From contig CAVPIW010000005.1 in assembly GCA_963705105.1 (NCBI GenBank), positions 588,987 to 652,986 on the forward strand: 64,000 nucleotides of DNA, written 5' to 3'. This document shows positions 36,001 through 39,000 of the stretch, piece after piece. Position numbers: made by a program. Numbering within the stretch: position 1 is the first letter of the stretch; every line of letters starts with the position of its first letter. The DNA is from an uncultured Nitrospiraceae bacterium. Its GTDB lineage: Bacteria; Nitrospirota; Thermodesulfovibrionia; Thermodesulfovibrionales; Dissulfurispiraceae.

Positions 36001-39000
36001 AGATATCCCAGGCCGTCGACGGGATAGAGGAGGCGGAGATACTCGAAATCATCGATCACCACCGCGTCGGCGACATTTCCACGGTCGCGCCGATCTATGT
36101 GTATAACGACCCGGTGGGGAGCACCTGCACCCTCGTGGCGGGGACCATGTTCCTTCATCAGGTGCGCATTCCCGCCGACATCGCCGGGCTTCTCCTGGCG
36201 GGCATCCTTTCCGACACGCTCCTGCTCACCCTCTCGACGACGACGGACCGGGACCGTCAGACGGCGGAGAAGCTCGCGGAGCTTGCCGGTCTCTCCTTGA
36301 GGGAGTTCGGCAAGGAACTGCTTCACGCAAGCATCAACACCACGGGCAAGACCGCGGCTGAACTCATTGAGGCGGACTTCAAGGAGTTCCAGATCGGGGG
36401 TAAGAGCCTCGGTGTCAGCCAGATGATGGTGCTCGACTGCGAGGAGATCGACCTGATGGAGGAGGACCTCCTGTCGGAGCTCGACCGGATACGGGAGTCG
36501 AAGGGGTATGATCTCACCGCCCTGCTCGTGACGAATCCGCTCAGCTCGGGGCATGAGAGGATCCTGTTGAAGGGAGAGACGTGGCTGGTCGAGAAGGCCT
36601 TTGGCGTTGAAGTGGAAGGAGATACCTGCGTGCTTCCGGCGGTGCTTTCGAGGAAGAAGGACTTCATCCCTGCCATCGGCAGGGCGCTCAGGATGGCCGG
36701 CAGCAACTGACCGATCCGGCTGGACTTCGCTCTGGTCATCGGGGGGCCTGTGATATAAAGCAGGAAAGTCAGGGAGGGGTGGAGACCCCTCCCTGGTTGT
36801 TTTAGAAGCGCACGTCGAAGGAGAAGTAGAGGTCCCAGGCGTGCTTGAGCGGGGCGAAGAGCTGCGTCTTCGTCACGTCGTTGGCGCTCAGATCGCCGAT
36901 CTTGAAGGACTGGCCGACCCAGTTGCCGCTGCCCGTGTAGTCGAAGTCGTAGTACTGCCACCCCAGCCTGAAGAAGGCGAGACCCCTCTTCGAGATGGGA
37001 ATGTTGAAGAGTTCCTGGATGGCATAGATCTCATAGACCTTGCCTCTCGCGCCGAGCTTGGACGTCCAGATGTCGTCTCCCGCCGGAACGAAACCGATCC
37101 AGTTGCCCGATCCGTAGTTGAATTCGAGGCCGATCTTCGTCCTCGTCGGCTTGATGTCATACCTGCCGCCGACATAGAACATATGGCCCGTATGGCTCTC
37201 CTCGTCCACTCCCGGCGTGGTCGGGTCGTCGTTGAAGCCGAGTCCGAAACCGCCGTTGAGCACCTGGTCCGGAATGCCGTCACCGTTGATATCGACGAGG
37301 GCAAAAGGCAACGAGAAGAGGTTGCCGTTCGGGTGGGTCTTGCTCAGGGCGGCAGCACCGAAGAGATGGAGATCTCCCGGGCCGAGGTCCTTGATCTTGC
37401 CCATGACGAGACCGCCGAGCCAGTCGATGTCGCCCAGGTTCGTCGTCACCGGCGTGGTCACGTTGATGAAGCTGCCCGTGGTTTGGGGCGGATTCTGGAG
37501 GAATCCCGGATCGACCTTCGTGACGAACCCGTCCGGCGGGTTTGTAAAGATTTCAAATCCGCGCTGCCATTGAAGGGTTACGAAAAGATTCTCCGTTTCG
37601 TACGGAGTAATATTAATACCGAAGAAATTCACGTCTTCAAGGTTCGAACTGAACCCGTTATCGAATCCCCGGCCCGCTCAAAGCTTCGCATAGGCGCCGG
37701 GAAGACCCGGAATCTCGGGCTGAACCCCGAAAGACGCCCCGTCAAAGGCGTAATCCACGAGGAAGCAGGGAATGCCTGCCGTGCCCTCCTTCTCCTCGTT
37801 CATCCGCAGGTGTGAAGGCGGGCCGTTCGTCGAAGGCCTCCTTCCGACGGAGAGCCAGATGGGCTGATCGGCGATGTTGGCCCAGGTGACAATGGCCCTG
37901 TCCACCCTGACCTCGCCGTCCGTCGGCACATGTCCTATCGTGCCGTCAAAGGGCCCGAAGGCCCTGTCGGCAAAGAACTGGCCGTCCGTGGGCTGTGACG
38001 TCTGGTGGCCCCAGATTTTGTACATCAGGAGCCTTCCCTTGAAGTTGATGTCCTCCGTCGGCTTCGCCTTGATGTCGAGCCTCAGGCGGTTGGTGAGCAG
38101 TGAGTCGTTCTCGGCGTCGAAGGCCTGCTGAGGCCTGGCCAGGAATGTCGTCACTGCGCCCGGAACGGGGAAGTTGGGGGCGCGGATCGCCGTCCCGAGG
38201 GCCGGAGCGAACTGGTCATACTGAACGTAGTCCACAGTCCTGCCCTGGAGAATGTCGTGACGCGACCTGAAGTCACCGCCGATCTCGAGCCAGGACGGCC
38301 AGCCTTTCGGCTCGTCGGCCTTTTTCTCGACCTTGGTGATCCTCTCTTCCTTGACCGTCTCCTGCTTCTGCATCTCCTGCATCTGCTGTTTGAGTTTCTC
38401 CAATTCCCTGGAGAGATCATCGATCTTCTTCATCAGATCTGCCTGATCGACAGCGAGCGCAGGGAGCGGCAGCAGCAGGGAGAAGGCAAGGAGCACCGCT
38501 GCAAGAGTGCGCATACAAACCTCCTTTCTCTATTCAGGGATGATCAGCGGTCATCCCCAAAAAAATTTGGTCACCGCCAATGGCGGTGGTTCGAAACGTC
38601 TTATGTACAGAAAAATGTAAAGTTTGCAAATGCCGTGCCCCCGTCAAACCGGGGGTCGATCAGTACACCGATTAAGAATTACTATTGAAAAAACAATGTT
38701 TTCCCCGGCGCCGCTCCGGACTGCGCGAAGCGCTGCTGTTTATCCCTCTTAACGATCCTGTAAAGTTAACAGAGTCATACCATATAATACCAGCATCAGA
38801 CTGGCAAGCCGAGCCCTTTCCTCTTCTCGTTGATGTGGTTGATCATGAGGTCGGCCGCCTTGTCCGGATCCGGCTCCACGGCGAAGCAGGCCCCGAAGAT
38901 GTCGCTGAGTCCCTTCGTCGCAAGCTCCGTCACCTTGCTGCTGCCCAGGATAGGCGGCATGACGCCGAGAATGGTGAAAATGCCGCTCGCCATGGCATAG

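Follow-up and report, generated by a model that had tools for sequence, protein, structure and literature searches.

The window, a stretch of 64,000 nucleotides, carries a single gene for a DUF3373/OMP50-type porin whose frame is broken by one in-frame TGA at codon 279. The initial annotation had described one 570-codon frame split by this TGA, with Pfam DUF3373 matches on both halves, and both statements hold. Translation of the minus strand from 38514 to 36802 contains the TGA as its single internal TGA, flanked by PGAYAKL and AGRGFDNG, and closes with TAA after a C-terminal phenylalanine. The Pfam model (PF11853) matches in one stretch across the TGA, from residue 134 to residue 570, with an expect score of 7e-130 and 434 bits (gathering cut-off 26.1 bits; model positions 2-409 of 409). 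The C-terminal part is called as an ORF of its own by gene callers, from a GTG at 37632. This is the only DUF3373 copy in the host genome. A sigma-70 and terminator scan found nothing above shuffled sequences, and the inverted repeat that we saw by eye beyond the stop codon was not listed by the terminator scan.

The TGA falls on a column that is strongly conserved as cysteine. As had been proposed, it aligns with the family's conserved residue: column 279 is cysteine in 363 of the 393 other aligned sequences. Among the best 30 loci from a search of 68 genomes of the family, 28 have TGC or TGT at codon 279 and two have TGA, the host gene and its counterpart in a related genome, G053. A class-wide search matched 124 of 390 genomes, with TGA in 2 of 128 matches, and a phylum sample in which 88 of 401 genomes matched returned the same two TGA genes. 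A further match in the phylum sample, weak (E = 3e-4) and with two stops, was disregarded. The gene in G053 is the only second TGA gene found; its TGA, reported earlier, is confirmed, but codon 43 of this copy is a TAG in place of the host gene's glutamine codon, a point that the earlier report did not mention. The G053 gene is therefore not intact as assembled. A pattern scan of 185,579 genomes, the host genome left out, accepted TGG or any of the stops at this codon and returned the G053 gene alone; it required the motif of close relatives, so that distant selenocysteine forms could escape it. A metagenome scan gave 11 loci, and its 12 matches covering the column comprised ten with cysteine and two with serine, and none with a stop. 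Cysteine forms are kept in two genomes that have selenocysteine machinery (G060 and G002). The cysteine is retained down to approximately 30% identity and is lost in the OMP50-like branch; its absence from OMP50 and about 30 distant relatives indicates that it is not required for the fold.

Table 1. Features of the porin gene and its surroundings, in window coordinates.
Feature	Position	Strand	Remarks
Probable terminator: 10-bp G+C inverted repeat	36770..36795	no strand	Just past the stop, between the porin gene and the convergent pyrophosphatase gene; seen by eye
DUF3373/OMP50-type porin gene	36802..38514	-	570 codons, with TGA279 read as selenocysteine (proposed)
SECIS-like hairpin, 6-bp stem, 5-nt loop AGUUC	37640..37656	-	Loop starts 27 nt 3' of the UGA; hairpin inside a 23-base stretch (37640-37662) identical in G053
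In-frame TGA, codon 279; proposed selenocysteine codon at the family's conserved cysteine	37678..37680	-	Mid-strand on barrel strand 275-284; probably lumen-facing, by alternation
Cys250 codon TGC, sole other cysteine	37765..37767	-	Loop L3, 2 residues past the position aligned with OMP50 Y204; found together with the stop form
N-terminal long helix, residues 24-67	38314..38445	-	Equivalent of the 44-residue periplasmic coiled-coil helix of OMP50
Predicted signal peptide, approximately residues 1-21	38452..38514	-	By-eye sequence reading; model shows helix 2-13
Shine-Dalgarno AGGAGG	38520..38525	-	From sequence
Sigma-54-type -24/-12 motif GG-N10-GC	38626..38639	-	RpoN is encoded by the genome
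CooS/Prismane	38796-40670	same as porin gene	Neighbour
4Fe-4S protein	40773-41375		Neighbour
Pyridine nucleotide-disulfide oxidoreductase	41414-42637		Neighbour

Predicted proteins that end early point to the same column. Seventeen of them, in seven clusters, end exactly at residue 278, a count that combines an N-terminal-half search with cluster members and distant representatives; one cluster is the host gene's own, and the other six are known as predicted proteins, in which the type of stop codon and any hairpin are not visible. The 27 other early-ending proteins, by comparison, are spread over 26 positions. The same contrast was apparent in the first N-terminal-half search, where 7 of 19 early-ending proteins stopped at 278 and the other 12 at 12 different positions. 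Intact C-terminal halves running to the terminal phenylalanine occur on contigs of 7959, 6321 and 7621 bases, sizes that match those for three of the 278-ending clusters, and from the equal sizes we infer that the two halves lie on the same contigs. The C-terminal ORFs start inside barrel strands or loops, at positions that differ from relative to relative. Among 150 representatives at 50% identity, the host gene's cluster alone ends at 278.

Comparison of the host gene with the G053 gene indicates equal constraint on the two halves of the frame. With synonymous sites saturated (pS 0.80 and 0.83), dN amounts to 0.35 before the TGA and 0.34 after it. Codons 285-291, which lie over the hairpin and inside the 23-base identical stretch, are identical in the two genes; this run is the longest in the gene, the next longest being three codons. 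Its probability, calculated from background codon identity at shared residues (121 of 320), is approximately 0.002, for a window that was chosen post hoc, though where a SECIS is expected.

The stop forms do not appear to have descended from one event. Over residues 75-278 the eight stop lineages share 56-85% identity, and they are interleaved with cysteine forms. On a 33-row tree the stop/cysteine history takes five changes, at least three of them forced by well-supported branches, and a single clade of the eight lineages was rejected (p-AU 0.0003) in a test that used this quick tree, 199 columns and cysteine rows picked as near neighbours. A 75-row tree, from an incomplete search, also needs five changes. 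Repeated interchange of cysteine and selenocysteine, or recombination, would explain this distribution; a single inherited nonsense allele, the caveat raised with the initial annotation, would not.

The host genome appears equipped to decode the codon. It encodes selA, selB, selD and a canonical UCA tRNA-Sec, all above family cut-offs, and its selD itself has a TGA; selA, selB and tRNA-Sec are also present in G053. In-frame TGAs occur at conserved cysteines of many unrelated host proteins. A further tRNA of 96 nt in the host genome has the anticodon GCA and reaches 55.9 bits against the tRNA-Sec model.

Both TGA genes have a hairpin after the UGA, with a stem of 6 bp in the host gene and 7 bp in G053, and it fits the bacterial SECIS consensus in loop size, loop G and spacing (PMC13188914, section 5). 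A hairpin at -5 kcal/mol or better was found at 2 of 37 cysteine loci. The upper stem by itself has an energy of -6.2 kcal/mol and so falls short of the consensus, which is -7.5 kcal/mol or below; the 52-nt fold has -11.8 kcal/mol and the G053 stem -8.1 kcal/mol. The hairpin had been described as weak, and energetically it is ordinary: z is 0.26 for a 61-nt stretch, and 9-10% of stops taken arbitrarily from the genome are followed by a hairpin that equals it. The two nearest cysteine sisters of the stop forms hold no relic of the post-UGA motif. A dicodon scan for coding-like TGAs missed codon 279, with a downstream score of 0.09 against a threshold of 0.12; the scan also passed many true stops and serves as a lead generator only.

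Taken as a whole, these observations are best explained by a selenoprotein form of the OMP50/DUF3373 porin, as the initial annotation had proposed, and we assign this reading a probability of about 0.85. The insertion of selenocysteine at residue 279, by SelB bound to the hairpin after the UGA, is in itself highly probable. Several lines of evidence support it: the six additional clusters that stop at the column, the hairpin conserved at synonymous sites, the equal conservation of the two halves, the failure of the stop lineages to form a clade, and the complete selenocysteine machinery. If the TGA were instead a true stop, a nonsense allele inherited or recurrent in decaying genes, the second stop in the G053 copy and the ordinary energy of the hairpin would be accounted for, and the change from TGC or TGT to TGA takes only one base. 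This is very improbable given that the same column is hit in eight lineages 56-85% identical that are not one clade, that conservation is equal on both sides of the stop at saturated dS, that synonymous sites are frozen over the hairpin only, that Cys250 accompanies the stop (see below) and that the porin gene is the sole DUF3373 copy in the genome. It is scarcely credible that the two annotated genes are real and that their two chains assemble a split barrel. Separate C-terminal ORFs are indeed predicted both here and in relatives, but their varying starts inside strands or loops argue against it, as does the lack of a signal peptide, judged by eye, with which they could not reach the outer membrane; moreover, two separate chains would leave residues 280-294 untranslated in spite of their conservation.

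Two further possibilities concern what the UGA does once it is translated, and taken together they are improbable. The codon might be read as cysteine or another residue, and the extra tRNA with a GCA anticodon would favor this; that anticodon, however, pairs with UGC and UGU and not with UGA, and the canonical UCA tRNA-Sec, SelA, SelB and SelD are all present. Alternatively, the main role of the UGA might be that of a switch by which the selenium supply sets how much porin is made. Any gene that contains a UGA yields less full-length product when selenium is scarce, but a pure switch has no need to sit at a conserved cysteine or to recruit Cys250.

The initial annotation called the product a secreted protein of unknown function. 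A signal peptide, recognized by eye, agrees with secretion, but the protein is better described as an outer-membrane barrel related to a known porin. A profile of 149 homologues matched PDB 10aw, the "50 kDa outer membrane protein", over its full length with an expect score of 1.6e-67, whereas the single sequence matched OMP50 at 4e-6 only. The AlphaFold model (pLDDT 93, pTM 0.86) has a helix at residues 24-67 and 16 long strands, as counted by us from the DSSP list; it aligns with trimeric porins at Z scores of about 21-23 in VIA-align, and Foldseek also matches porins. OMP50 is missing from the Foldseek and VIA-align lists, an absence that carries no weight because the library ends in April 2026 and the OMP50 paper dates from August 2026. 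On the evidence of profile and model, then, the DUF3373 protein is a homologue of Campylobacter OMP50, a porin of solved structure, and is predicted to be a beta-barrel of the outer membrane.

The published account of Campylobacter OMP50, as far as its accessible text goes, describes 16-stranded barrels assembled as a trimer, with a periplasmic helix of 44 residues; L3 is among the loops that fold into the pore and make it very narrow, Y204 closes it, and the protein works as a cation-selective pore (PMC13759207). By homology, and from the signal peptide and the terminal phenylalanine, the selenocysteine porin would likewise be located in the outer membrane, form a trimer and act as a channel. 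The full chain would be exported via its signal peptide and fold as a 16-stranded barrel, probably trimeric with a periplasmic coiled coil like that of OMP50.

The model and the alignment together suggest where residue 279 points. It lies in the middle of a strand (275-284) in which none of 291 sequences departs from K277 or G281, and in which positions 278 and 280 are hydrophobic or aromatic. The invariant lysine and the character of 278 and 280 imply that residue 279 should face the lumen, and the side chain of Sec279 is accordingly expected on the pore side of the wall. Residue 248 aligns with Y204 of OMP50, which places Cys250 on the constriction loop L3.

Cys250 is nearly confined to the stop forms. 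Every one of the 17 truncated proteins (7 of 7 clusters) has it, compared with 3 of 393 read-through homologues; the G053 gene has asparagine at this position, so that Cys250 occurs in seven of the eight stop lineages. The three read-through homologues that have it carry exactly two cysteines after residue 22, at 250 and 279, and one of these plain Cys-Cys proteins, P0122, is the sister of the host gene. Exactly one cysteine after residue 22 is found in 264 of 291 relatives. Covariation analysis of 357 read-through sequences paired column 250 with 234 and gave no 250-279 signal, in an alignment where column 279 hardly varies.

A resolving cysteine beside selenocysteine is common in selenoenzymes, and alternation between cysteine and selenocysteine usually marks a chemically active residue. 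At somewhat less than even odds, we consider that Sec279 and Cys250 form a redox-active pair at the constriction, with residue 279 acting as a reactive chalcogen on the pore wall. Most relatives would then have a lone thiol at 279 on the pore wall, and the selenocysteine form a selenol backed by a resolving Cys250 on L3. A reversible Se-S bond might pin or free L3; alternatively, Se-S chemistry might retain a solute that reacts with thiols, such as polysulfide, thiosulfate or selenite, for a short time during its passage. These substrates are a guess prompted by the organism's many sulfur-handling selenoproteins. The fullest version of this scheme, in which a selenol with a resolving cysteine replaced the lone, reactive pore-wall cysteine on several occasions, and a covalent Se-S cycle lets the channel carry or gate sulfane sulfur or polysulfide, is doubtful. 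If it were true, an Se-S cycling porin would be an outer-membrane entry step for sulfur species in respiration or disproportionation, a route that the accessible texts of PMC13510729 and PMC13490349 call unidentified.

The main rival to this mechanism leaves the selenocysteine reading intact and holds that the inserted residue is structural or near-neutral: either a permanent Se-S link that staples L3 to the wall, or a swap of cysteine for selenocysteine that is tolerated because the genome uses selenocysteine freely, in an ordinary general porin. In keeping with this rival, in-frame TGAs are found at conserved cysteines of many unrelated host proteins, the form is rare (2 of 128 class matches), three read-through homologues hold 250 and 279 as Cys-Cys, and OMP50, which lacks the cysteine, is a cation-selective pore (PMC13759207, in its accessible text). 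A staple within the chain, however, is not possible in the 264 of 291 relatives that have a single cysteine after residue 22, and yet their cysteine is kept down to about 30% identity. Keeping selenocysteine also has a cost, since the SECIS constrains the coding sequence. We regard a structural or near-neutral role as a serious alternative but on balance unlikely.

Genes for CooS, a 4Fe-4S protein and a pyridine nucleotide-disulfide oxidoreductase, noted earlier as a CO-dehydrogenase operon, do adjoin the porin gene. The porin gene lies downstream of cooS on the same strand, across a gap of approximately 280 bases that holds the sigma-54-type motif. The GG-N10-GC motif is found upstream in 12 of 38 loci (the host gene included, some loci redundant) compared with 0.5% of shuffles. 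No CooS homologue and no pyrophosphatase neighbor was found at any of 41 homologous loci, some of them redundant, within flanks of 1.5-5 kb. A functional link between the porin and the CO-dehydrogenase operon was considered and rejected as unsupported, because CooS is absent from all 41 loci and the porin gene has a promoter motif of its own; the operon is probably an incidental neighbor. At cysteine-type loci, a TlpA-like redoxin adjoins the gene in 17 of 41 cases, a small Cys-rich lipoprotein with three further conserved cysteines in 14 and a transketolase in 11. Neither the redoxin nor the lipoprotein lies beside the porin gene at the host locus. Their association gives the proposed redox mechanism circumstantial support, but it may be plain synteny, since orientation varies and the transketolase is frequent too.

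Among known systems the nearest is OMP50 of Campylobacter jejuni (PDB 10aw/10dn; PMC13759207, accessible text; TCDB 1.B.60 according to the accessible text of PMC4827864), for which kinase activity has also been reported. The whole-length homology (E = 1.6e-67), the signal peptide, the N-terminal helix of approximately 44 residues and the barrel with long inward loops are shared. The proteins differ in that OMP50 has alanine at the positions of both 250 and 279, and in that its constriction tyrosine is isoleucine in the selenocysteine porin. Cys-type DUF3373 proteins (PF11853) of Nitrospirota and other anaerobes are mostly 45-66% identical and share the motif K-x-C-x-G-[KR]-G; they differ in having cysteine, encoded by TGY, and usually lack Cys250 and the hairpin.

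Outer-membrane barrel selenoproteins are already catalogued, and what is new here is the DUF3373 family and the position of the selenocysteine. Table 1 of PMC13188914 includes two from other families, the GSU2204-family MtrB/PioB-type barrel (NF041027) and the FCYXU TonB-dependent receptor (NF049945), as well as an inner-membrane YeeE/YedE selenoprotein, also from a different family, in which selenocysteine sits in a transport protein. In comparison with the catalogued barrels, the DUF3373 selenocysteine would be mid-strand in a barrel of the general-porin type and has no CxxU or UxxC motif. The initial annotation stated that the family has no NCBIfam model and is not among published selenoprotein families. 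Both statements agree with our searches: NCBIfam release 20 gave no model for the porin at E 0.001 and no match to a selenoprotein model, and DUF3373 does not appear in Table 1 of PMC13188914, in the accessible main text or supplement of BSepDB (PMC13326102), in the accessible parts of four deep-Sep supplements (PMC12013277) or in the accessible main text of SelCysML (PMC13745706). A full-text literature search, in which subscription papers were outside scope, returned no paper linking DUF3373 to selenium in the text it covered, and none for PF11853.

The predicted selenoprotein porin is rare and well supported by comparative evidence; its mechanism is a proposal. It would bring a further family into the bacterial selenoproteome, and the site is unusual in that the selenocysteine would lie in the wall of a porin of the general type and not in a redox enzyme. 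Because alternation of cysteine and selenocysteine usually marks an active residue, the lone conserved cysteine of a widespread porin clade (124 of 390 class genomes) may be a functional site, an idea open to test in the common cysteine forms. The selenocysteine-form genes are split in two by gene callers.

Two other systems bear a resemblance to these proteins. The Geobacter protein ExtI is an outer-membrane porin with a single cysteine that is implicated in selenite and tellurite reduction and encoded beside the selenoenzyme ExtKL/MccSep; it is not described as a selenoprotein in the accessible text (PMC5877670), and we liken it to DUF3373 by description only. Two ExtKL-family TGA genes are present in the host genome, on another contig, and this family has been shown to reduce polysulfide (PMC13510729, accessible text). 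In Dissulfuribacter thermophilus, the 20 most abundant proteins during thiosulfate disproportionation include one of the DUF3373 family, with no fold change given (PMC13490349, Table 1); this is circumstantial support for the mechanism, and porins are often abundant anyway.

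In-frame TGA codons also occur in other genes of the source genome. In its RtcB RNA ligase gene the codon is followed on the 3' side by a strong hairpin, and the cysteine that it replaces is a metal-binding residue. RtcB is absent from Table 1 of PMC13188914, in the part of that table covered here, and the protein is a candidate new selenoprotein. The RseC/MucC-like protein, which owes its name to a weak NCBIfam match (E 3e-5), is likewise missing from the covered part of that table, and a clear hairpin accompanies its TGA. In the [NiFe] hydrogenase large subunit the TGA stands for the second cysteine of the N-terminal RICGVC motif and has a good hairpin (-11.9 kcal/mol); the C-terminal motif of the same subunit is of the Cys type. 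This predicted Sec position looks new, because the known NiFeSe enzymes have their Sec in the C-terminal motif, as UxxC (Table 1 of PMC13188914). Further TGA genes belong to known kinds: an arsenite methyltransferase, and several whose names come from motifs alone (FdhA, two rhodaneses, a DsbA-like protein, a UXX-star protein).

Features located in the source genome (G000, with its contigs C5, C6, C10, C12 and C16) and in individual loci (L handles; coordinates after the colon count within the locus)
Feature	Genome position	Locus	Strand	Remark
RtcB RNA ligase gene, in-frame TGA	G000:C12, TGA at 322015	L101:122-1564	+	TGA = Cys of GYDINCG
[NiFe] hydrogenase large subunit, hydrogenase-2-like, in-frame TGA	G000:C10, TGA at 51332	L103:125-1822	-	
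NuoB gene	G000:C5, TGA at 32942	L102:172-690	-	TGA at first Cys of GLACCAIEM
RseC/MucC-like membrane protein gene, in-frame TGA	G000:C16, TGA at 45705	L104:138-641	-	UxxC motif
Two tandem ExtKL/MccSep-family multiheme cytochrome genes	G000:C6:765276-768114		+	one TGA each
96-nt tRNA, GCA anticodon	G000:C10:176596-176691	L002, L108	-	
Small lipoprotein gene		L022:3263-3607; also L057, L063, L064 and ten more loci		

The 96-nt GCA tRNA, which resembles selC*-type tRNAs, reaches 55.9 bits against the tRNA-Sec model, above the cut-off, and is encoded in addition to a normal tRNA-Cys and a tRNA-Sec. It is flanked by a two-domain rhodanese and by a double-cubane reductase with its activase. Elsewhere in the genome, 23 tRNA genes are arrayed in about 2.2 kb (G000:C4:10181-12340), possibly on a mobile element.

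At loci of Cys-type DUF3373 homologues, a lipoprotein of about 115 aa adjoins a TlpA-like redoxin and the DUF3373 gene in 14 of 41 cases. Besides the lipid cysteine it has three conserved cysteines, one of them C-terminal. The copies tested had no Pfam or NCBIfam match, and a search of the source genome for the lipoprotein gave no match at E 1e-8. One locus (L066:4449-8786) holds three tandem DUF3373 paralogues, in which the conserved column is Ser in two and Cys in one.

Within the window, the putative leader of the DUF3373 gene contains a perfect 8-bp palindrome (38572-38588), whose halves are separated by a single nucleotide and which leads into an A/T run; it is a possible operator or attenuator. 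Over and just 3' of the SECIS-like hairpin, at 37500-37699, G+C is only 0.50-0.52, compared with 0.55-0.69 in most of the gene.
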